From Cetorhinus maximus (lineage: Eukaryota), in NCBI RefSeq assembly GCF_964194155.1, contig NC_135890.1, positions 27,218,001-27,282,000 on the forward strand: a stretch of 64,000 nucleotides of DNA, in the 5' to 3' direction. The notes below the pieces were generated by a model. The model did not search any database. It had not been told where the DNA came from and worked only from the letters and a program-made list of their open reading frames with translations. This document shows, piece after piece, positions 3,358 through 62,560 of this stretch. Made by a program: the position numbers and the translations under genes. Every line of letters starts with the position of its first letter. Within the stretch, counting starts at the first letter, position 1.

Positions 3358-3459
<102 letters not shown>

Positions 3460-7197: not shown

Positions 7198-7650
7198 GGT
7201 TATTGGCTTAGTACAATGAGGACCAGAGTTAATCGTCTCCTAACCCTAAATTCGCTTTATTCACGTTGTTCCATCGTATACATATAGCTTATAGGTCTGG
7301 TTAGATATAGACATGCAGTTTGCACCAGGTATAGTCTTATACCCAAACTAGGATCTAAACCCACACCCCGAAATTCTCCACTCTTATACTGAATCTTATC
7401 TCTTCAAGCTGTGCTGTCTCTCTCCCGTTGGTTTAGGCTTCCTTGCCTAGTCTGTGGCATCTCCTCATCTGTCCCAAGAACTTGGGTAGCATAACCTCGT
7501 TACCCCTTTTCTAAATAAGGACTTGTGTCTCATCACATTTCCTTTGTCTTTGCTAATTCAAACCGGTTCCAGCCAGCTCAGGCCAGTGACTGACCTCAGG
7601 TTACTTCAGTTCAAAAGTTGCTCAGGAGTTTCTGCAGCCCCTGGCCAACA
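7198..7650 (-). repeat. 3' LTR of the ERV (internally deleted, U5 end truncated)
   Basis: Aligns to 14847-15487 with the 180 bp equivalent to 15021-15200 missing; AATAAA on the minus strand at 7256-7261. Confidence 0.9.
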
Positions 7651-7663
7651 TCTCCCCTCTTTT
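7651..7663 (-). promoter_or_regulatory. Polypurine tract
   Basis: Minus strand AAAAGAGGGGAGA abuts the TG of the 3' LTR. Confidence 0.9.
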
Positions 7664-7815
7664 GATCCAAAGATCTTAGGATCATTATTCTCCCTTTCTG
7701 TGTACCACTCCTGAGGTTGTCATTGTCCCTCAGTAGGCATGTTATATCCGCGATATCACATGGTTATATAAAAATATAAAAGAGGAGCGTATATAAAATA
7801 TACTTCACAGTGTCC

Positions 7816-8964
7816 TTATATTGATAATCGTTTCTTCTGTTTCATTATAGCACTAACATTCAATCGTTGAAAAATTTCAATTTTCCACCTTCTAAGCTGA
7901 TATATGTTGAATATGACAAGTATTAATGCACATAAAATCACAACTACAGCAGCATGTGATAAAATCCTGACCCATGGATGTATTTGAACATTAGATCCCC
8001 AATTCCAAAACTTATCCCAGAACCTGGGGTCCCGTAGCAGTTCCTCTGCTTTATCAGCATGAGTTCTAATTATTTTAGTATGTTTAGTCCATTGGTGAAT
8101 TATCTCTTTGGACGCAAATAGCAGAGGAAGCCAATCTGCAGTCAGGTGCGGAATAGGTGGTAGTTCGGTAGGAACATATTTCCGCAGATCTTGGTCTATA
8201 TCGGTACATTGGACTGTGAGGTCTTTCATTTATTACCATCCTCATTATTGGCTTAGGCAGAACTTGTCCACCGATAACCAGGTCTAAGGTCACATTGTTA
8301 ATGGCCACATTGTGTCCTTCCAGAGGGCACTGTTTCCATCCTTTGTTATAGTTCATAGCCGCTGTGGCTATGTCATATGTTTGTCCCACAAGGGCGTATT
8401 GTAAAAAGGACTGGCTGTTATCAGGCAGAATGGACAATGAACAATTTTCATAAGTACTGACAATTGATGATGATCCAGCCAATCTTTCTAAAACGCCTGC
8501 TTATATCCTCCCCAATCAATATATCTCCGGTATGAGTCGCTACCCCAGTCAATATTCACATAGGTGTGGTCCCAGTGGACCATAATTTTACCTCGACCGT
8601 CACTCCCCGATGGTCGCTCAATAAATGGACCCACAAATTGACTAATGATTTTTCCCTCTGGGATTACTGACAATGTCACCTCTAGAACTTTGTTGCATGA
8701 AAACTGTACTCCCGCTTCCTCCGGTATACCCAAAGTTTTTCCTGCGCTAATTCCCGTATAATATAAATTTAAGTCCTCTCTTTTCCCTTTGTTGGTTCGG
8801 ACTGTCTTATTCTGCAGAGCAAAGTTGTTCCTGGTCTCGGGATATCCCTCTGCCGCCGACACTGCTTCAGGTACGTTCATTCGTTGTGACGGCTTCTAGG
8901 CAGGTTCAACCGCAGTTCTGATGATGGTCAATCTGATAGCAACAAAATGCATTATCCCCTTCAT
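7816..8964 (-). pseudogene. env: ERV env-like gene, disrupted, ~380 codons
   Basis: Splice acceptor ttcattacag ending at 8977, ATG at 8964, signal-like N-terminus, N-glycosylation sequons (NKT, NCS, NVT), Trp-rich FWDKFWNWG, then TM ILSHAAVVVILCALILVIFNIY and a basic tail; lies between IN and the PPT. Confidence 0.75.
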
Positions 8965-9235
8965 TTTAGGCTGGACCTGTAATGAACAAGTGTAATTTCT
9001 GTTCTTATTTACAGTTTCTTTTGAGTACTATTTTAAGTCCAGTCTCTCCATATACTGAGCCAGACCGTCCATATCCTGTTCCCAATTTGTTTCAGATTCT
9101 AACTGTCCATTTCTTCTAACCCACTTATCCCCCTTCTTTGTTTTATTTTTCTTTCGTTTTTTCCCTTGGATTTGCCTCTGTATATGAACGGACAGTATCA
9201 AATTTGTTTTCAATCACCTCCTCTTTGATCTGTAG

Positions 9236-12200
9236 CTAGTCCTGTTCTTGATCTCCCTGACCTTCGGGATTCGGAACATCATTAGCATCGAGCAGCACAT
9301 GCCAATGGTGATTATCTTGTTTTTCTCCCACTAACTTTAGTTGATTAATGTGATACCAGCCACTCTTATCTGGTGTCGTTAATATCTTGTATACAGATGG
9401 GCTAGCTTTATCTACTATCTCATAGGGGCCAGCAAACTTTGGACTCAAGAATGAGGTGGGCTGGTGTATTCTAATCATTACTCTTTGTCCGGGGCTCAAC
9501 TCTATCGGGCTGGCTTTTGCGTCGAAATAAGCCTTGCTTTGCTGTTTCTTCTTTCCCTGTTGGTGAGCGGCTACATAATTTGCTTCTTTTACTGTTTCTA
9601 CTAGCTGTTGTACCCATTTTTCTGATATAATGTGGTCTACCTCGGGTTTGGACAAATCCAAACCTACCAACCCCTGCATTCCCCTCATGTCCCTTCCTGT
9701 CATGAGTCTATAAGGAGTGTAGCCTGTTGATGAAGCCACGATATTCCTGATTATCATCAGCACGAGCTGTCAGGTTGTCTTGTGCTGCTGCACCATTCTG
9801 GCTATCATGTTTTTCAATGTCCGATTCATTCTTTCCACAATTCCACTAGACTGTGGTCTATAGGGTATGTGGAATATCATAACATCTTGCATTACTTGGG
9901 CTGTAAAATGTGTTCCCTGATGCGATCCTATGCTTCGGGGTAAACCCCAACGGGTAAACATCTGTAATAAAATTTTCGCAGTAATTTTGGCTGTGTTTGT
10001 TCTCTTCGGAAAAGCTGCCATCCATTTAGTGAAGGTATCCACTATTACTAGAATATACTTGTATCCTCCTGGAGCAGGGGGAAGGGGTCCTACATAGTCT
10101 ATCTGTAAATTAGTCCAAGGCCCTTCTACTGATCTAGTATGTCGGAGGGCCCCTTTCCTAACATTTCTATCGGGGTTGTGTTGTGCACAGATCAAACAAT
10201 TCTTGACATAATGTTCCACGTCACCTTTCATTCCGGGACACCAGCGCACCTCGTTTATCTGATCCAGGGTGCTATCCGTCCCTTTATGTCCCCATAAGTC
10301 ATGGTACCAGTGGATAATTTGGTTTCGTCCCCCCTCTGGCACCACAAATTTTCCCTCACATAAAACCACTCCGTCTTGAAAGTAGACCCCCTCGTGCCTT
10401 TTGTATGTGTCTGACTCTGCTCCTTCTATTAGTTAGTTTCAATTCTCCGTCTTTCTTTTGCTCCTCCGTTAAATCCATTACTTTGGCCTTCTCTTTCTGG
10501 CCCCTGATTTCCCCAATCGGTGGCTGCCATTCCTGTCCACTTACAGCACCTAGTTTGGCTAGTTCATCAGCTTTCCTGTTCTCTTTAGGAGATAGTTTTG
10601 AATGAGCTTTCACTTTTGTGACCCCAAATCCTTTCCCCTGTGCTTCTTCAAAGATGTACTGTAATAGCGGGGCCGAAGGAAGGGGCCTTCCACCCGCTGA
10701 GACAAATCCTCTCGCTTCCCATAGGGGCAAATGTTCTGTGAGGCTATTACAGACATACATGCTATCAGAATATATGACTGATCTAGGCAGAAAGTATTCC
10801 AGATGGCCAATCACATATGCGACGGCAGTTCTGCTGCCTGTGCACTCATGGTTTTAGGTAATTTCAAAGCCGCACTATATCTTTCCTGTCCGTGTTCATC
10901 CTCCATGTATATCCCACAGCCAGTTCTCCTTTCCCCATCCTGTACTGATGAAGAGCCATCCACAAAAATTTTAAAATAGGGTTCTTCCTTTCCTGTTTCC
11001 TTTGTTTTTCTGCTTTCAGGCCCCGTCTTACTCCCTCCCTTTTTCTTTGATACAAATGGGCCCTTGGGGTAATTTGCTATCATCAGTTGACACCCACGTT
11101 TTTCTCCCTGATAAACTAAGTTGTCTGCTAACATAGTGGTGGTTTTTACCCCCTTTGCAGTTATATTTCTCCCTTGCAGCAACAATGTCCATCTTGCGAT
11201 TCTATTTTGGCTAACTGCACCATCCTTCTGTCTAACAGTAGCTGTACGGGGGTGTGTTCTGTTAATATTGTAAGTGGATTTAGTCCCACTATATAGGTAA
11301 AATGCTACACTGCCCAAAAGACAGCTAGCAAGTGTTTTTCGCATATCGTATACCCCTGCTCTACTGGTGAGGGCGTATGCTACTGGTCGTAATTTCCCGT
11401 GTGCCTCCTGTAATAGAACTGCCGAAAGGGTGGTGTCTGTGGTAGCCACCTCCAACGAAAACAGCTCAGTTGGAGTTGGGGTTTTGAGAGCTGGCGCGGC
11501 AGCTAGTGCTTGCTTTAGAGCGGTCATGGCCTGAGTGTGTTCTGTTTTCCACTCCCAGGCCACATGCTTTTTTAATAATTCCATTAGCAGGGCCGCTTTC
11601 TTGCCGAATCCATCAATGTGGTCCCTGCAATATCCCACCAAGCCTAAGAAGGACCTTAACCCTTTTACATCCCACGGAACAGGGAGTCTACCAACTGTCT
11701 CTTATCCTTCGCTTGTCAATGACCCACTTCCCCGGTGTCAGAATCATTCCCAAGTAAGTAACTTTTTGTTTCATGATCTGCACTTTTTTAGGGTTAATCT
11801 TTAATCCCAAGTCATGTAATAACTGTGGTAATTCACTTAGCAGTTGATAATGTTCCTTTTTGGTTTTAGTTTGTAGGAGTAAGTCGTCTACATACTGCAC
11901 TAGACATTCAGGCCTCGAGAATCCTTTTAACCCTTCCCTCAGCCGCTGGTGAAATATGGACTGGAAATTGTGAAATCCCTGCGGCAGGGCAGTCCATGTA
12001 TATTGCTGTCCTTGGAAAGTAAACACGAATTTATATTGACATTCTTTCTACAGTGGAATAGACCAAAAACCGTTACTTATGTCCAAAACCGTAAACCACT
12101 GTGCATCCTCATTTTGTCGAACTACTGTCTCTGGGCTAGTTGCTACAGTAGGGGCTGTTATTTAATTCTCTGTAGTCTATCGTTAGTCGCCAGCTACCGT

Positions 12201-12940
12201 CGGGTTTCCTCACCGGCCAAATAGGTGCGTTGTTAGTAGAAACTATTGGTCTTAATATCCCTTCCTGCAGCAGAATCTGTATCACCTTCCCTATCTCTTC
12301 TGCTTGTTTTGGGAAACCGTACTGCTCTTGTGGTTTGGGATCTGGACCTTGTATACACACACTCCCGGTCATTTTCCCACAATCATGTTTATGTCGGGCA
12401 AATACAGTCGGGCAAATTTGAGTTTTGTGCAATAATTTGTTGTACTTCACGATCATCACTCATTTCTCCTGGTTCTATCCACATTTCCCCGATCGTGCAT
12501 ATCCTATCCTGATATTCCCCCACCGGGACGAGTGTGAGATTTATACTGCCTATGCCCAAAGGCATTTGACAAATTATACAATTAACGAGGTCAAAGCAGA
12601 GCCTCACTTTGGCCATATAGTCGCTCTCTAATATATGTTCTTGTTCTCTGGGTAATTTGATAAGGACTACTGAATGCCCTATCACTATGTCTCTCACACC
12701 GACTTCCAACGGTACACTCACATATCCTACTTGTGAATACCCTGTGAATCCGCTTAGAATAATTTTGTTTTGAATTTTTCAATCTACGTCATTGATCTGA
12801 GTGGTGTTAACGGTGGTTCAGGACCCCCCTGTGTCCCAAAGAAATGTAATAGGGCGGCCTCCAACCCTATCATTCACTAGGGGTCACCCCGTGTCATCCC
12901 ACCGCGTATCACACACCCATAATGGAGAGGCCTGAGACCG
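9236..12940 (-). pseudogene. pol: ERV pol, disrupted: protease, RT, tether, RNase H, integrase
   Basis: FLWDTGGS (DTG at 12827-12835); KPDGSWRLTIDYRELN, LPQGF and YVDD (11883-11894); RH FVDGS, SAQAAEL, YSDS, KVKAHS, ADELAK; IN HHCC, LQIDYVGP, SSGIVERMN, GPY motif. Confidence 0.93.
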
Positions 12941-14710
12941 TCATTGCAGTTCGGGGTACAACCCGGAACTCGGTGGTATTTCTGTCATATCACACTGAGG
13001 ACTTGGTCTATTCGGCCCTTCCACGGGTAGGCTCTGGTTTCCTCCCTGACCTGCATTCTCTCGTCTCGAGTTCGGGCAGTCCCCTGCGAAGTGTCCCTCT
13101 TAGCCACAGTTGCAGCATCTGGACACCTCGCCCTGAGTTCTCCCCATTCCCAAGAAGTTTCCTTTTCCTCTGCCTTTACCTCTTCCCACTGTCTGATAAG
13201 CTGGAGAGGGTTCCTTCTGAGTAGGTCCCCTCCCTTCATTTCTCCAGGTTGTCGCCTAATTCTTAACAGGCATTGCTCTGTCCCTGGATGTCTTGGGTAG
13301 TTTTGGTGTTTCCCTTTCCCATACTCCAACCATCTTGCTAATTATCCAGGGCTCTGTATGTGTGTCATCAGTGGGATCAAACTGATCTAATGCTTTCCTC
13401 GACGACTCAGTGCCAGGCGACACTAGCGTTCTCAGCCATCAGTTCCTAACCTCAGGCTGTAAATTATCCCTATCTAAGCCTGTGCTGTAGACCCCTTGAA
13501 ACACCACCCAAATGCGAGCCGAAAATGCGGTTGGATGTTCACCTTTTCTTTGATAGCATTTTGTTAGCGCCTCTACCGGATCCCCTCTGCTTTCGCCCAA
13601 GACAGATAATACCTGGTCCTTTAAGGCTTCATTTGTGCCTCTACCAAGGTTTTGTTCCTCCGGTAGGACGGAGTGTATATGTGGATGTAGGTACATTAGG
13701 ATTAATTTTCTTTCCTCAGCATCGTCTAAGCCGTGTACCCCTCTCTGTTGCCTGACCGCTAGGAACAACTCCCAAGGATCGTCCCCGGGCGCACACGTCC
13801 CAATATCTTTCGCAATATCCCTCAGTTCTTGTACCCCAAGTGGGGTGAAATATGTCATATTTGGGCCAGCTTGCCCCTGCCCATCTGCCCCTGCTTGTGC
13901 TCTAGTGGTTACAAGGGGGGCCATTGGAGCAGATGGTTTTTACAGCTCTGGAATATATGCCGGCGGTGGATCCTCTGGTGGAGGTTCCCCGTCACCGCTG
14001 CTGTATCTATCCACCCCGTCTGCTAAATCAGCCCAATCTACATCCCCTTGACCGTTTTCTTCACCTCTTCCGGATGCGAAAGCACACAGTTATGCCCCTC
14101 TGTGCGGCTAGCTGATCTTGCAGCCTCACTATCAATTTCTGACACTTTGTGTGATCACCGGTACTGCTTCTCTTTTCCTGAGCTGCTCTGTGAATCACAT
14201 TCATAGCAGTTTTTAAATCACTACATTGTTGTTTCCGGCCCTCCATCTCAGCTTTAGCTGCTTGGGCTTCTCCCTCTCTCTTACTCTTTTCATTAGCCAA
14301 TTTTTCATACTGTAACTGATATTGGTTCATGTGCATCAAATCCGCACTTCTCTGTCCCTTTAAATCAGTTACCTTCTTACTAAGGCGGGCTATCTCCTCA
14401 TGGAGTTTTTTATTCTCTTCCTCTAGTCTGTCTCTGTCCCTCCTAGCCTGCTGTCGGCATTCTATCCATTCCCCAAATAAACATCCGATCGCTACGGACT
14501 TCTGTACCTTTTTAAATTTCTTATCTGACATCTTTGCACAATCCTCCAAAGGGTCTCCCCAGCGAGTTTTCCCTTGTCACCAATGTGACCTGCATACTAC
14601 CCAATTGCAGCCACTTCCCTATTACGTACTTTTGGAGGAGTCCCTTCCAGTCAAAACAATCCAAGTCCCCAGGGCTTGGAGATTCCCTTTGATTCTTATG
14701 TTAATAGCTA
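12941..14710 (-). pseudogene. gag: ERV gag, disrupted (coiled-coil N-term, PPAY, PSAP, capsid with MHR-like QRKGEHPTAFSARI, one CCHC knuckle, C-terminal LYPEL)
   Basis: ORFs 14061-14549 and 13439-13924 plus manual translation; knuckle CCNCG*EGHFAGDC at 13076-13117; start position approximate. Confidence 0.85.
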
Positions 14711-14797
14711 TGAATTAACCCAAACTCTTGTTCTCTGTGTACTTTGCCAACTCGGTTCGGCTCGAGTCTCCCGCTGACTCAACAGAGAGATTTATTC

Positions 14798-14819
14798 TCG
14801 AGCCCACCCAGGGACGCCA
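14798..14819 (-). promoter_or_regulatory. Primer binding site, tRNA-Asn(GUU)
   Basis: + strand TCGAGCCCACCCAGGGACGCCA equals the recalled 3' end (with CCA) of vertebrate tRNA-Asn; 4 nt from the LTR end. Confidence 0.88.
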
Positions 14820-14823
14820 AATA

Positions 14824-15487
14824 TGTTGCCGGAGGTCACCGGTAACGGTTATTGGCTTAGTACAAACAGGAGAAGAGTTAATTTTCTCTTAACTCTAAAT
14901 TCGCTTTATTCACATTGTTAGATCATATACGTATAGCTTATAGGTCTGGTTAGATATGGACATGCAGTTTGCACCAGGTTATACAGTCTTACACCCAAAC
15001 TAGGATCTAAACGCACACCCACTAGGTTTCTTTGACGCCCCGAGTGGTCACAGAATATAAAAGCTAATACCCGAAAAGGAGAGCTGACGCTGGCCAGGCG
15101 TTCCGTTCTCTCTCTCTTTCGGTGTCGTCTGTACGTTGCTGAAGTAGGTTCTTCCGCTTCCGTGATGGTTGTTCTCCAGAGTTCTTGCTGGCTCCACGCC
15201 CGAAATTCTCCACTCTTATACTGAATCTTATCTCTTCAAACTGTGCTGTCTCTCTCCTGTTGGTTTAGGCTTGCTTGCCTAGTCTGTGGCATCTCCTCAT
15301 TGGCTCTGTCCCAAGGACTTAGGTAGCATAACCTCGTTACTTCTTTTCTAAATAAGGACTTGTGTCTCATCACATTTCCTTTGTTTTTGCTAATTCAAAC
15401 CGGTTCCAGCCAGCTCAGGCCAGTGACTGACCTCAGGTTACTTCAGTTCAAAAGTTGCTCAGGAGTTTCTGCAGCCCCTGGCCAACA
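14824..15487 (-). repeat. 5' LTR of the ERV (664 bp)
   Basis: TGTTG...CAACA termini; on the minus strand CCAAT (15299-15303), TATAAG (15215-15220) and AATAAA (~14905-14910); direct repeat of 7198-7650. Confidence 0.92.
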
Positions 15488-17656: not shown

Positions 17657-17905
<249 letters not shown>

Positions 17906-21299: not shown

Positions 21300-22920
21300 A
21301 GAGCATGTTAGAGCGGTTAAAAAAGGAAGGAGAGAAAAAAACAGAATTACAGACCAGTTAGCCTAACATCATTAGTGGAGAAAATGCTAGAGTCTATTAT
21401 AAAGGACGTGGTAACAGAACACTTGGAAAGCATTAACGGGATTAGACAAAGTCAGATAAAAGCAAAAAACTGCGGATGCTGGAAATCCAAAACAAAAACA
21501 AAAATACCTGGAAAAACTCAGCAGGTCTGGCAGCATCTGCGGAGAGGAGCACAGTTAATGTTTCGAGTCCGAATGACCCTTCAACAGAACTAAGTAAAAA
21601 GGTAAGTAAAAGCTAAGTAAAAGTAAAACTTAGACAAAGTCAGCATGGGTTTATGAAAGGGAAATCATGCTTAACTAATCCACTAGAGTTTTTTGAGGAT
21701 GTAACTAGTAGAATAGATAAAGGACAGCCAGTGGATATGGTGTATTTGGATTTCAAGAAGGCTTTTGATAAGGTCCCACATAAGAGGCTAGCGGGCTAAA
21801 TTAAAACACATGGGATGGGGGTAATATACTGGCATGGATTGAGAATTAGTTGAAAGACCTGGAACAGAGAGTAGGAAGAAATGGGTCTTTTTCCAGGTGG
21901 CAGGCAGTGACCAGTGGTGTACCGTAGGGAATCAGTGCTTGGGCCCCAGCTATTCACAATATATATAAATGACTTGAAGAGGGAACCAAATGCAATATTT
22001 CGAAGTTTGCTGATGACACAAAACTGGGTGGGGTTGTGAGGAGGATGCAAGGAGGCTTCAGGGTGATTTAGACAAGTGTGTGTGGGCAAACACATGGCAG
22101 ATGCGGCATAATGTGGGTAAATGTGAAGTTATACGCTTCGGTGTGAAGAACAGAAAGGCAGAGTATTATTTAAATGGTGATATATTGGGAAATGTGGATG
22201 TACAAAGGGATGTGGGTGTCCTTGTACACCAGTCAATGAAAGTAAATAGGCAGGTGCAGCAAGCAATTAGGAAGGCAAATGGCATGTTGGCCTTCATTGC
22301 AAGAGGATTTGAGTTCAGAAGTAAAGATATCTTACTGCAGTTATACAGGGCCTTGGTGAGACCACACCTGGAGTATTGCGTGCAGTTTTGGTCTCCCTAC
22401 GTAAGAAAAAGATATACTTGCCATAGAAGGAGTGCAGCGAAGGTTCACTGGGCTGATACAAGGATGGCAGGATTGTTGTATGAGGAGAGATTGGTTTGAC
22501 TGGGCCTGTATTCACTAGAGTTTAGAAGAATGAGAGGGGATCTGATTGAAACGTATAAAATTCTAACAGGGCTAGACAGACTGGATGCAGGGAGGATATT
22601 TCCCCTGGTTGGGGGAGTCTAGAACCAGGGTCACAGGCTCAGGATATGGGGCAGGCCATTTAGGACTGAGATGAGGAAAAATTTCTTCACTCAAAGGGTG
22701 GTCAACCCTGTGGAATTCTCTACCACAGAAGGCTGTGGAGGCCAGGTCACTAAGTATATTCAAGAAAGAAATTGATAAATTTTTGGATATTAGAAGCTTC
22801 AAGGGGTATGGAGAGAAAGCGGGAATATGACATTGAGATAGAGGATCACCATGATCATATTGAATGACGGAGCAGGGTCAAAGGGCCGAATGGCCTACTC
22901 CTGCTTCTAGTTTCTATGTT
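21300..22920 (+). mobile_element. CR1 LINE ORF2 3' half plus 3' UTR, nested in the Gmr1-type gag
   Basis: NYRPVSL, KFADDTK and RPHLEYCVQFWSP motifs; ttctatgtt tail. Confidence 0.88.
21456..21629 (-). mobile_element. Short Penelope-terminus insertion within the CR1, 14-bp TSD
   Basis: TSD ttagacaaagtcag at 21442-21455 and 21630-21643; reverse complement of the 29860-29966 terminus. Confidence 0.8.
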
Positions 22921-27756: not shown

Positions 27757-27999
27757 ATCGCTTTTTTAAAAAAAATGTAGGTTATTAGAATTGGGATGAG
27801 CCAGAACAAGCCTGTGTGTTTCCTCACCCAAAGTGAAAGGCTAACTGTATGGGTATTGATGAGAATTCCTGCTGAAATTTCAGATGCTACATAGTGGCAT
27901 GTATGAAAATAATATTGCTATAATTGTGTAATATAATCCTTTTATTTTCATTTGCTGATCTTTGCAATGAGTGAGAGAAGCCTTGTTTTTTTCAGTCTC

Positions 28000-29966
28000 T
28001 TCCAGTCTCTTCCCACCACATCCGTGATTCCTCTGATGCCCTACATCATATCAACAATTTCCAGTTCCCTGACGCCAACTGCCTCCTCTTCACCATGGAC
28101 GTCCAATCCCTCTACACCGCCATCCTCCACCAGGATGGCCTGAGGGCTCTCCTCTTCTTCCTTGAACAGAGACCCGCACAATCCCCATCCACCACCATTC
28201 TCCTCTGTCTGGTTGAACTTGTTCCCTCACTGAACAATTTCTCCTTAAACTTGTCTTACTTCCTCCAAATGAAAGGTGTGGCTATGAGTACCCGCATGGC
28301 CCCAGTTATGCCTGTCTCTTTATGGAGTATGTGGAACATTCCTTGTTCCAGTCCTACTCATGCCCCCTCCCACAACTCTTTCTCTGGTACATCAATGACT
28401 GTTTCGGTGCCGCTTCATGCTCTCGTCTGGACCTGGAAAAATTTATTAACTTTGCTTCCAATTTCCACCCTTCCATCACTTTCACATGGTCCATCACTGA
28501 CACTTCCCTCCCCTTCCTTGACCTCTCTGTCTCAATTTCTGGTGATAGATTGTCCACCAATATTCACTACAAGCCCACCAACTCCCACAGCCACCTCGAC
28601 TACAACTCCTCACACCCTGCTTCCTGTAAGGACTCCGTCCCAATCTCACAGTTCCTTTGCCTCCGTCGCATCTGTTCCGATGATGCCACTTTCCAAAACA
28701 GTGCTTCTGATATGTCTTCCTTCTTCCTTAACCGAGGTTTCCCACCCACGGTGGTTGACAGGGTCCTCAACCGTGTCTGACCCATCTCCTGCGTCTCTGC
28801 CCTCACATCTTCCTCTCCCTCCCAGAAGGCATGATAAGGTCCTCCTTGTCCTCACTTTTCGCACCACTAGCCTCCACGTTCAAAAGATCAACCTCCGCCA
28901 ACTCCAGCATGATGCCACCACCGTCTTCCCCTCACCTTGCCCCCCCCCCCCGCCCCCGCCCCCTTGTCGGCATTCCATAGGAACCGTTCCCTTTGGGACA
29001 CCCTGGTCCACTCCTCCATCACCCCCTACACCTCAACCCCCTCCCACAGCACCTTCCCATGCAATCGCAGAAGGTGTAACACCTGCCCCTTTGCTTCCCG
29101 ACCTCACCGTCCAAGGGCCCAAACACTCCTTTCAAATGAAGCAGCACTTCACGCACTTCCCTCAATTTGGTCTACTGCATGCGCTGCTCCCTCTACATTG
29201 GAGAGACCAAACGCAGACTGGGTGACCGCTTTGCGGAACTCCTTCGGTCCGCCTGCAAGCATGACCCAGACCTTCCTGTCGCTTGCCATTTCAACACGCC
29301 ACCCTGCTCTCATGCCCACATATCCGTCCTTGGCCTGCTGCAGTGTTCCAGTGGAGCTCAACACAAACTGGAGGAACAGCACCTCATCTTCCGATTAGGC
29401 ACCTTACAGCCTTCCAGACTTAACATTGAGTTCAACAACTTCAGATCATGAACTCTCTTCTCCATCCTCACCCCTTTTTGTCCCCTTTTTTCATATATTT
29501 ATTTTTAAATTTTTACTTATATATTTTTTTTCCACCTATTTCTATTATTATTTTAAAAATTTATTTCCATTCTGTTTTATCCCCACCTTTTAGCCTATTT
29601 TGATCTTTTCTCCCACACTGCCCCCCCGCCACCCACTAGGGCCACCTGTCACTTGCTCATCCTGCTTTCTACTCTTAAAGTCACCATTAGCACCTCCTTT
29701 AGCCAGCATCACCACCATCAACACCCCTTTGACCTTTTGTTTATTGCATCTTTTGCAATCTCTCTTTTGTCTCCGCCTATCACTGGTCTTCTATCCAACT
29801 TCACCTGTCCCACACCCCCTTGAGCAGTATATATTTCACCACATTTTTACTTCTCTTTAGTTCTGAAGAAGAGTCATACGGACTCGAAACGTTGACTTTG
29901 TCTTTCTATCCACAGATGCTGTCAGACCTGCTGAGTTTTTCCAGCAATTTTTGTTTTTGTTTTTTT
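28000..29966 (+). mobile_element. Penelope-like element (RT + GIY-YIG endonuclease), decayed
   Basis: MDVQSLYT, YIND(D), FLDL, YKPT motifs; VYCMRCSLYIGETKRRLGDRF GIY-YIG; characteristic 3' terminus. Confidence 0.92.
29859..29897 (+). ncRNA. Minimal type-I hammerhead ribozyme motif in the Penelope terminus
   Basis: AGUU-CUGAAGA-A-GAGUC(auacg)GACUC-GAA-ACGU-U-GACU: core, perfect 5-bp stem II, palindromic ACGU stem III, stem I with one G.U. Confidence 0.75.
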
Positions 29967-60844: not shown

Positions 60845-62560
60845 ACAGAATCATAGAATCACAGAATCAGAATCACAGAATCTCACAGTGCAGAAGAGGC
60901 CCATTGAGTCTGCACTGACACGTGAGAAACACCTGACTTACCTAATCCCATTTACCAGCACTTGGCCCATAGACTTGAATGTTATGACGTGCCAAGTGCT
61001 CATCCAGATACTTTTTAAAGGATGTGAGGCAAACCGCCTCCACCACCCTTCCAGGCAGCGCATTCTGGACCGTCACCACCTTCTGGGTAAAAAAGTTTTT
61101 CCTCCATCCCCCCTAAACCTCCTGCCCCTCACCTTGAATTTGTGTCCCTTCGTGACTGACCTTTCAACTAAGGGGAACAGCTGCTCCCTATCCACCCTGT
61201 CCATGCCCCTCATTATCTTGTACACCTCGATCAGGTTGCCCCTCAGTCTTCTCTGCTCCAACGAAAACAACCCAAGTCTATCCAACCTCTCTTCATAATT
61301 TAAATGTTTCATCCCAGGCAACACCCTGGTGAATCTCCTCTGCACCCCCTCCAGTGCAGTCACATCCTTCCTAAAATGTGGCGACCAGAACTGCACACAG
61401 TACTCCAGCTGTGGCCTCACCAAGGTTCTATACAACTCCAACATCATGACCTCCCTACTTTTGTAATATGCCTTTTTCACCACCCCACTAACATGTCGCC
61501 CCCCCCCCCACCCCACACCCTTCAGAGATCTATGGACACACACGCCAAGATCCCTTTGTTCCTCAGAACTTCCTAGTGTCATGCTGTTCATTAAATACTT
61601 CCTTGTCAAATTACTCCTTCCAAAGTGTATCACCTTATGCTTTTCAGGGTTAAATTCCATCTGTCACTTATCTGCCCATTTGACCATCCCATCTATATCT
61701 TCCTCTAGCCCAAGACACTCAACGTCACTGTTAACCACCCGGCCAACCTTTGTGTCATCCGCAAACTTACTAATCCTAGCCCCCACATAGTCATCTATGT
61801 CGTTTATATAAATGACGAATAATAGGGGACCCAGCACAGTTCCCTGTGGTATGCCACTGGACACTGGCTTCCAGTCACTAAAGCATCCTTCTGTCATCAC
61901 CCTCTGTCTCCTACAACTAAGCCAATTTTGAATCCACCTTATCAAATTACCCTGTATCCCATGTGCATTTGCCTTCTTTATAAGTCTCCCATGTGGGACA
62001 TTGTCAAAGGCTTTGCTGAAATCCATATAAACTACATCAACTGCACTACCCTCATCTACACACCTGGTCACCTCCTCAAAAACTTCAATCAAATTTGTTA
62101 GGCATGACCTCCCTCCGACAAAGCCATGCTGACTATCCCTGATCAAACCTTGCCTCTCCAAGTGGAGATAGATTCTGTCCTTCAGAATTTTCTCCAATCG
62201 TTTCCCTACCACTAGTCCTAGTACTGATCCTTGGGGAACACAACTGCATACCTCCCTTCCAGTCCGTAAAACAACCAATTACCACCACACTCTCAGCCAA
62301 TTTCGTTTTGATGATATCATGGTCCCTATTATTCCATGTGCCTCAACTTTGCTGACCAGTCTATCATGTAGCACTTCTTCAAATTTTTTTTGGAAGTCCA
62401 TATGCACGACATCAGCTGCATTACCCTCATCAACCCTCTCCATTACCTCAACAAAGAACTCCACAAGATTCTAACCACTTTTTCTTTAACTAGTTATGTG
62501 ATCATTTCATCCTTAATTAGAGGCAATAAAATTTTCCCTACCACAGATGTTAAGGTAACT
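60845..62560 (-). mobile_element. CR1 ORF2 RT 3' half (60845-62213) plus an older adjacent CR1 piece
   Basis: QHGF, DFSKAFD, PQGTVLGP, KFADDTK, RPQLEYCVQFWSP; agaatcac-type tail. Confidence 0.9.

Follow-up and report, generated by a model that had tools for sequence, protein, structure and literature searches.

The provirus and its host locus

The window, by which we mean the whole 64,000-nt stretch of DNA that was analysed, carries a provirus on its minus strand, inside an intron of what its flanking exons mark as a PHTF gene, the host being probably a shark, judging from relatives. The plus-strand exons before and after this intron (3358..3427 and 17739..17897) are in phase with each other and match PF12129 (PHTF1-2_N), which bears out the antisense position proposed in a sequence-only reading of the same DNA. 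The host gene is probably PHTF2 and not PHTF1.

The order LTR-PBS-gag-pol-env-PPT-LTR given in that reading was also confirmed, and every part was located on the minus strand. The 5' LTR (TG...CA, 14824..15487) has an AATAAA at 14910. The primer binding site (14798..14819) starts 4 nt past the LTR, and its 22 nt can base-pair with the 3' terminus of the host's tRNA-Asn(GTT), so that reverse transcription would use a tRNA-Asn primer. The gag gene (12944..14690, start approximate) encodes an N-terminal coiled coil and a capsid and is disrupted by stops and frameshifts. Both Gag features named earlier are present, the MHR as an MHR-like motif in the capsid (13552-13514) and the single CCHC knuckle as a PF00098 match with an internal stop (13117-13076). 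The pol gene (9215..12940, 3' end approximate) is broken and contains the protease Asp motif (12841-12827), RT with YVDD (11897-11883), the tether, RNase H (from 10969) and an integrase with HHCC, core and a GPY motif (9436-9422). The env remnant (7816..8964) consists of a signal-peptide-like start, an N-terminal domain and a C-terminal part with a transmembrane helix (7956-7909). It is followed by the polypurine tract (7651..7666) and the 3' LTR (7198..7650), which is without approximately 180 internal and 23 terminal nucleotides; because the 3' LTR end is missing, the target-site duplication cannot be read in this copy. No tRNA genes were found in the window, a search against Rfam gave no matches, and no accessory ORFs were seen in the family to which this copy belongs.

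The description of the element as near-complete was overstated. The window copy has many stops and frameshifts, a longest ORF of 296 aa, a shortened 3' LTR and an env that is short by approximately 1.1 kb. The two LTRs agree at 94.5% of 453 aligned columns (K2P 0.058), which would correspond to approximately 130 million years at the rate of Han 2015 (2.2e-10) and to approximately 13 million years at a tenfold faster rate. The copy is an inert fossil today, lying antisense in an intron.

Placement by RT and integrase

In the RT phylogeny that had been proposed as a check, RT lies within Retroviridae (support 100/99 in one tree and 99/97 in others) and outside Ty3/Gypsy, from which it is set apart by two starred branches; these trees were built without reference sequences for ERV-L, for fish foamy-like elements and for class II, and their loki references were picked by letter match to the Wang and Han supplement. 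Grouping of RT with lokiretroviruses was rejected (p-AU 0.00036), so the loki-like membership suggested at first does not stand. Grouping with foamy viruses was rejected too (p-AU 0.005), with a single foamy reference on a long branch. Joining the family to SnRV itself gave a p-AU of 0.042, and monophyly with SnRV was not recovered in RT trees, whose deep nodes are weak. The closest rows are Pols of amphibians and coelacanth (54-59% identity, with other relatives in the same range), and SnRV is next by identity (48%), compared with 36% for equine foamy virus. All four RT motifs quoted in the sequence-only reading are present, but they are the motifs of SnRV, and the resemblance to spumaviruses that had been drawn from them does not hold.

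The idea that the element is a lokiretrovirus, or a recombinant between a lokiretrovirus and a retrovirus and the first of its kind from a cartilaginous fish, draws on other parts of the genome. The Gag N-terminus is a coiled coil, and Env is of the F type with a motif order like that of loki Env by eye. The tether (38-43%) and IN (41-48%) are more similar to loki-like proteins than to SnRV (29% and 35%); for the tether and RNase H the comparison was one of percent identity. Grouping of IN with lokiretroviruses was not rejected (p-AU 0.051). The RT test largely refutes this idea. All non-loki retroviruses still keep to one side of the IN tree, although support is weak (69/56) and CGIN1 was left out, and the higher identities to loki-like proteins therefore fit slow evolution. 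IN and RT gave trees that could not be told apart, and the description of pol as a mosaic is not supported. The Gag has no BLAST similarity to loki-like Gag-Pol, the loki-like Gag-Pol P0002 is a single ORF with no knuckle match, and lokiretroviruses were present in none of three chondrichthyans (Wang and Han). The pol carries the tether plus a second RNase H, but this is not diagnostic for lokiretroviruses because every retrovirus has it (Wang and Han 2021). We consider a loki origin highly improbable, and a tempting call is corrected here.

A reading as an errantivirus-like Ty3/Gypsy retrotransposon that acquired an F-like gene would fit the GPY motif and the 4-bp target-site duplication, F-type env is common in Ty3/Gypsy (bioRxiv 2023.10.26.564294), and Baculo_F/Gypsy clusters are among the Env atlas matches described below. 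We give this next to no credence; it is already refuted by the tether plus second RNase H and by RT trees that separate the family from Gypsy. The target-site duplication of the family copies is 4 bp, exact in nine and with one mismatch in six of 17. Membership in ERV3/ERV4, which have a 5-bp duplication and are without a zinc finger and a GPY/F motif (Chong et al. 2014), was ruled out by the 4-bp duplication, the knuckle and the GPY motif. Foamy viruses are defined by a Gag without Cys-His box or MHR and by a separate pol (PMC5210030), and spumaretrovirus or foamy-like membership was likewise ruled out by RT placement, the PF00098 match, the MHR-like motif and the in-frame junction.

By RT, clade Huo covers retroviruses outside class I, class II and the foamy viruses that are related to SnRV, and the family agrees with this through its nearest rows by identity and through the published placement of its relative Rh_ty_ERV2. 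The coiled coil, MHR, zinc finger, GPY/F motif (in some members) and in-frame gag-pol stop are traits of Huo and SnRV-related viruses according to excerpts of PMC2717909, PMC4299795 and PMC13517186. The element is best placed in the known clade Huo (SnRV-like), and the loki reading is not supported. The broader view of a cartilaginous-fish ERV that branches deeply and is neither gamma-type nor foamy is supported. It had been called possibly undescribed; a close whale shark consensus, Rh_ty_ERV2, is already printed beside SnRV under clade Huo by Xu et al. 2018 (PMC6001957, S2 Data and S2 Fig). The clade is therefore described, yet Rh_ty_ERV2 is not near-identical by eye. Scans of viral contigs with RT and Env queries found no relative, and a metagenome scan gave only Gypsy-like matches (28-33%).

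The gag-pol junction stop

Gag and pol are in frame, as the sequence-only reading stated, but they are separated by a TGA (12943-12941) that it did not mention. This TGA is part of the hexamer TGA-CGG (12938..12943), and the protease Asp motif follows 34 codons on. UGACGG or UGACUA constitutes the type II readthrough signal in an excerpt of PMC13517186. Among the 40 family copies examined, the stop is TGA in all 36 that hold the junction, and the next codon is CGG in 26, TGG in five, CAG in two, CGA in two and TGA in one; the ten codons other than CGG are CpG-decay forms. A sister family (support 92/92, RT 53-61% identical) has TGA at 11 of 12 junctions and CTA next in 10 of 12, at the same place, in flanks that are only 27% and 40% alike. 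CGG and CTA together make up approximately 2% of pol codons. Two more groups have TGA at 5/5 and 4/4 junctions, followed by CGG or decay forms, and the published rh_ty_ERV4 has an in-frame TGA-CGG by eye. The exceptions among related loci are one TGA-AGG, one duplicated locus with a sense codon and two loci without the junction.

The type II hexamers, together with purifying selection on shared pol variants, make it likely that Gag-Pol was made by readthrough of the UGA-CGG stop. Most ribosomes would halt at UGA and release Gag, whereas a small fraction would decode the stop as an amino acid and go on to translate PR-RT-RH-IN. The same TGA might instead be an ordinary gag stop, skipped by a spliced pol mRNA as in foamy viruses, whose pol is expressed separately according to part of PMC8278194 and one of which is known to be primed by tRNA-Asn. 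A convincing stimulatory RNA stem was not found above controls (mean z of about -0.9, against -0.3 to +1.2 in controls), which also favours splicing; VEEV and CTFV UGACGG needs such a stem. A candidate stem pairing +4..+23 with +70..+89 was seen only when a 90-nt span was folded (mean z -0.95). However, the frame and the 34-codon spacing from stop to protease Asp are kept across families 40-50% apart, and the codon after the stop is always one of the two type II forms or a product of its decay. No Met precedes the protease Asp after the stop in 28 of 34 copies, and SnRV, Ovex1 and XtERV-S are reported to have, as a rule, an in-frame stop that is presumed to be suppressed. A spliced pol is therefore unlikely.

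Another reading takes the family as non-autonomous: pol would be a passenger past a true stop, with enzymes supplied by a helper. In its favour, none of the 40 copies has intact genes, and many related families are present in the same genome. Against this, dN/dS without CpG sites was 0.86-0.95 for singletons and 0.44-0.55 for variants in at least three copies (gag and pol). The effect on shared variants was significant in tether-RH-IN (p 0.0003) and not significant alone in gag (p 0.054), PR-RT (p 0.089) or env. Since shared pol variants are poor in amino-acid changes and private ones are neutral, Pol was needed in cis on the internal branches, and a passenger pol is very unlikely.

Env, wider meaning and known systems

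The env of the window copy has an internal deletion of approximately 1112 nt at about 8460, with which the furin site, the fusion peptide and the first heptad region are gone. Siblings with a longer env have both the furin site and the fusion peptide, and their Env is predicted to fold like paramyxovirus F. The traits of loki Env (signal peptide, RxKR, fusion peptide, coiled coil and transmembrane helix) are found in these siblings and not in the window copy. The top matches in an Env atlas were PF00523, and with the Env model every listed PDB match in Foldseek was a paramyxovirus or pneumovirus F (best E 7.6e-9), although model quality is weak (mean pLDDT 46, TM <0.2). Epsilonretroviral Env was also among the fold-search matches. 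A VIA ranking placed NDV F and foamy Env first with Z of 6.8 and 6.6, values within the chance range. Pfam HMMs found no PF00523 in the window env pieces or in 17 aligned Env stretches, a profile search of PDB sequences with Env gave nothing meaningful, and a single-sequence fold of a stingray homolog (pLDDT 38) was set aside. The fold models predict that the family Env is of the paramyxovirus-F type and resembles loki Env in type.

One of three recurring env deletions is carried by 26 of the 33 assessable copies, with breakpoints common to 8, 13 and 5 copies at separate loci. Judging from these breakpoints, genomes without a full env were copied again and probably went on spreading through the germ line. 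They would be copied intracellularly or packaged by helpers. Integration in this family would leave 4-bp duplications. The shared deletions could partly come from gene conversion.

Taken together, we regard it as probable that the element is a decayed, env-deleted Huo/SnRV-like provirus, with likely UGA-CGG readthrough, a predicted paramyxovirus-F-type Env and likely germ-line spread after loss of the env fusion part. The F-type Env on an SnRV-like pol, taken with the foamy Env structures (PMC11468914) and the epsilonretroviral Env matches, suggests a fusogen that is old and shared. It would have been swapped later, since a gamma-type Env is found in CmiERV lineage I, which belongs to the same pol group. 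We put forward tentatively, at slightly less than an even chance, that in the aquatic clade Huo the Gag:Gag-Pol ratio is set by UGA-CGG or UGA-CUA and kept through codon switches, and that the F-type Env of this lineage, which has a canonical retroviral RT, is homologous to that of lokiretroviruses and reflects a type ancestral to retroviruses and lokiretroviruses. If this is true, an ancestral F-type Env contradicts the independent env capture preferred by Wang and Han 2022, who saw no apparent relation between loki and canonical Env. The type II signal would then be a readthrough class unlisted for retroviruses: the retroviral contexts in a 2026 review are only UAG-G, UGAAGA, UGACGA and UGAAGU. 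Several families converge on both type II hexamers, whereas known retroviral readthrough uses UAG plus a pseudoknot (type III).

Type II readthrough is also known from alphaviruses (VEEV UGACGG, Sindbis UGACUA) and a coltivirus. In the present case each of two sister families has one of the two hexamers, at the boundary of a structural and an enzymatic ORF, but an extended downstream stem-loop was not found above controls in the window family. One of the two, as UGACUAG, is also the motif of human readthrough genes. SnRV shares the RT motifs and, in excerpts of PMC2717909 and PMC13517186, a Gag that combines a coiled coil, an MHR and a single knuckle, as well as an in-frame gag-pol stop. It differs in having UAG-GGC in place of UGA-CGG, in IN and tether identity, and in not being a sister in RT trees. 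Rh_ty_ERV2 is closely similar by eye in the capsid, MHR and knuckle of its Gag and in the junction peptide and protease motifs; it comes from another host, and its printed translation crosses the junction without a stop. CmiERV lineage I of the elephant shark (Han 2015, PMC4422223) has a pol of the SnRV type that carries the same RT motifs, together with, by eye, an in-frame TGA followed by C (TGA-CAT) at the junction. Unlike the F-type Env of the window family, its env has an immunosuppressive domain and CX6CC (gamma-type, by eye), and its PBS is different. Like the window family, lokiretroviruses have an N-terminal coiled coil, a tether plus RNase H and an Env that is related to F and carries both a furin site and a fusion peptide. 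The window family differs from them in an RT outside the loki clade, a CCHC Gag, the junction stop and an extra N-terminal Env domain of approximately 200 residues.

Organisation of the provirus and its genomic family

The provirus at 7198..15487 is encoded on the minus strand, flanked by host exons at 3358-3427 and 17739-17897; these exons are mutually in phase and match the PHTF1/2 N-terminal Pfam model. This agrees with the sequence-only reading, which had placed it antisense to a PHTF gene in an intron; the host gene is probably PHTF2. The LTRs are 94.5% identical across 453 aligned columns (K2P 0.058), and the 3' LTR lacks about 180 internal nt and about 23 terminal nt. The PBS is complementary to host tRNA-Asn(GTT), and its letters recur at six genomic sites, of which the three that were fetched are all tRNA-Asn genes. 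Pfam models identified RT, tether, RNase H and the zinc, core and C-terminal domains of IN in pol. Protease, YVDD, GPY and TM motifs were located, as were the MHR-like and CCHC motifs that had been claimed for Gag. The description "near-complete" is too strong: the genes are broken, and the 3' LTR and env are shortened. The copy is disrupted along its whole length, the longest ORF being 296 aa. Elsewhere in the window, to judge from their translations, 27975-29400, 22017-22500 and 61073-62278 are presumably degraded fragments of Penelope-like and CR1/L2-like LINEs.

Searching the Cetorhinus maximus genome with pol gave 83 candidates; all 40 that were scored matched, with 89-93% identity apart from the self match. 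The window copy and the other 39 scored copies, all fetched, constitute the family studied here. None of the 40 has an unbroken gene set. Both ends are present in 17 copies: nine have an exact 4-bp target-site duplication, six a 4-bp one with a single mismatch and one a 5-bp one, and one has none. LTR-LTR divergence ranges from 0.017 to 0.069 (14 copies). A 288-nt LTR piece found 394 candidates in the same genome, 40 of which were scored (86-96% identical). LTRs far outnumber pol copies, and solo LTRs are probably common.

The gag-pol junction

Gag and pol had been read as in frame. The frame is continuous through the junction, but an in-frame TGA separates them in all 36 of the 40 copies in which the junction is present. 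The next codon is CGG in 26 of these and TGG, CAG, CGA or TGA in 10, which are CpG decay forms of CGG. In 28 of 34 copies, no Met lies between the stop and the protease Asp. Private variants are neutral and shared variants are depleted of amino-acid changes, which indicates that Pol was needed behind the stop. These sequence patterns point to UGA readthrough, although no stimulatory stem was demonstrated when one was looked for downstream of the stop. Type II readthrough, the alphavirus-type leaky stop, is defined as UGACGG or UGACUA in a review that gives neither for retroviruses (PMC13517186), though UGA itself is known in SSSV, ZFERV and RMEV and also in XtERV-S.

Env and RT searches of the genome also surfaced related ERV families, sampled at 20 of 132 Env-search and 20 of 150 RT-search matches. 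In a sister family TGA is found in 11 of 12 junctions, followed by CTA in 10 of 12, and the stop-to-protease distance is again 34 codons. This family (loci L045-L047, L054-L056, L073-L076, L085-L088) has a TGA-CTAG junction, a different PBS and an F-type env, whose furin site appears weak in those open stretches that were read. A further group has TGA in 5/5 (next codon CGG in two, TGG in two, CAG in one), and another in 4/4 (TGG in two, TGA in one, CAG in one). Deviating loci include one with TGA-AGG, a distant one with TGA-CAT and a duplicated one with TTA-CGG. Two related loci have no junction, and most of the more distant loci picked through the env search gave no readable one.

Env deletions and predicted fold

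Env is long in seven of the 40 family copies, carries one of three recurring deletions in 26 and another deletion in one, and is not covered in six. The recurring deletions are that of the window copy (about 1112 nt, eight copies), a second of 1197 nt (13 copies, length measured in eight) and a third of about 927 nt (five copies); the furin site and fusion peptide fall within each of these deletions. Translated with stops written as X, the long form spans about 745 residues, counted from the likely start. It comprises a signal-like start, N-terminal domain, basic cleavage site, hydrophobic peptide, heptads, Cys-rich beta region and TM.

Atlas searches ranked PF00523 first, recognition being low in the first of the two, and Baculo_F and foamy Env were also matched by structure. 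An Env model built from 17 natural stretches (pLDDT 46) matched only paramyxovirus/pneumovirus F in the PDB list. In BFVD it also matched arthropod-virus glycoproteins, baculovirus F and the Env of WDSV, WEHV1 and feline foamy virus. VIA ranked NDV F and foamy Env first, at chance-level Z. Env had been described as lacking the gamma-type signature; this absence is a trait of the whole family. By eye, the motif order of the long Env is that of lokiretrovirus Env, and on the modelled fold F-type Env is not confined to lokiretroviruses.

The sole database homolog in the protein search was a stingray protein, 50% identical over the F core (P0051, Hypanus sabinus LOC132401028; 745 aa, open), which may be either a recent provirus or a retained env gene. 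An F-core search of the basking shark genome gave at least 132 matches at 25-93% identity (127 scored of 1541 candidates). Several further ERV families there have F-type Env, some with env frames open for 600-700 codons. Four related elements (L048, L049, L050, L057) keep env and have shortened or missing pol parts.

Phylogenetic placement and relation to known viruses

Homolog searches supplied the references: SnRV (P0061), loki-like Pols, equine foamy virus, WEHV1, and gamma-like and Gypsy proteins. P0061 was taken as SnRV because, in the stretches compared, it is identical to the SnRV RT sequence published by Wang and Han; by eye, the loki-like Pols match the loki sequences of the same work. 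Family RT is 54-59% identical to frog, coelacanth and unnamed Pols, 48% to SnRV, 36-40% to lokiretroviruses and 36% to foamy virus. The closest named Pols (P0052-P0056, frogs and coelacanth) are annotated "NYNRIN-like", and the mammalian NYNRIN/CGIN1 gene may have originated close to this clade.

Four RT trees (51, 85, 38 and 30 rows), built without ERV-L, fish foamy-like and class II references, place the family within Retroviridae and outside lokiretroviruses, which rules out Gypsy membership. AU tests on the 38-row tree gave p 0.00036 for the family with lokiretroviruses, p 0.005 for its group with foamy viruses and p 0.042 for its group with SnRV. The window copy and its family are thus neither lokiretroviruses, as first proposed, nor foamy viruses, which the RT had been said to resemble. 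By identity, tether and IN are more similar to lokiretroviruses than to SnRV. IN trees do not decide between the two affinities; they gather the non-loki retroviruses, weakly supported, on one side and do not set IN apart from the RT placement. The proposed mosaic was not demonstrated.

The most probable history is that the germ line was infected by an SnRV-like retrovirus, which produced Gag-Pol by UGA readthrough and multiplied there, to a growing extent in env-deleted form. The window copy is one of these insertions, now dead.

The family had been considered possibly undescribed. By eye, its Gag and junction closely resemble those of the whale shark consensus Rh_ty_ERV2 (Xu et al. 2018, PMC6001957), whose label adjoins SnRV under clade Huo in the label order of the extracted text rather than the drawn tree. 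The lineage has therefore been sampled before, and the family belongs to a known clade. Within the literature searched, with subscription papers, Dfam and Repbase outside the search, we found no description of the junction readthrough signal or F-type env for clade Huo. What our analysis adds to this known clade is a type II-like UGA junction signal together with an apparently F-type Env.
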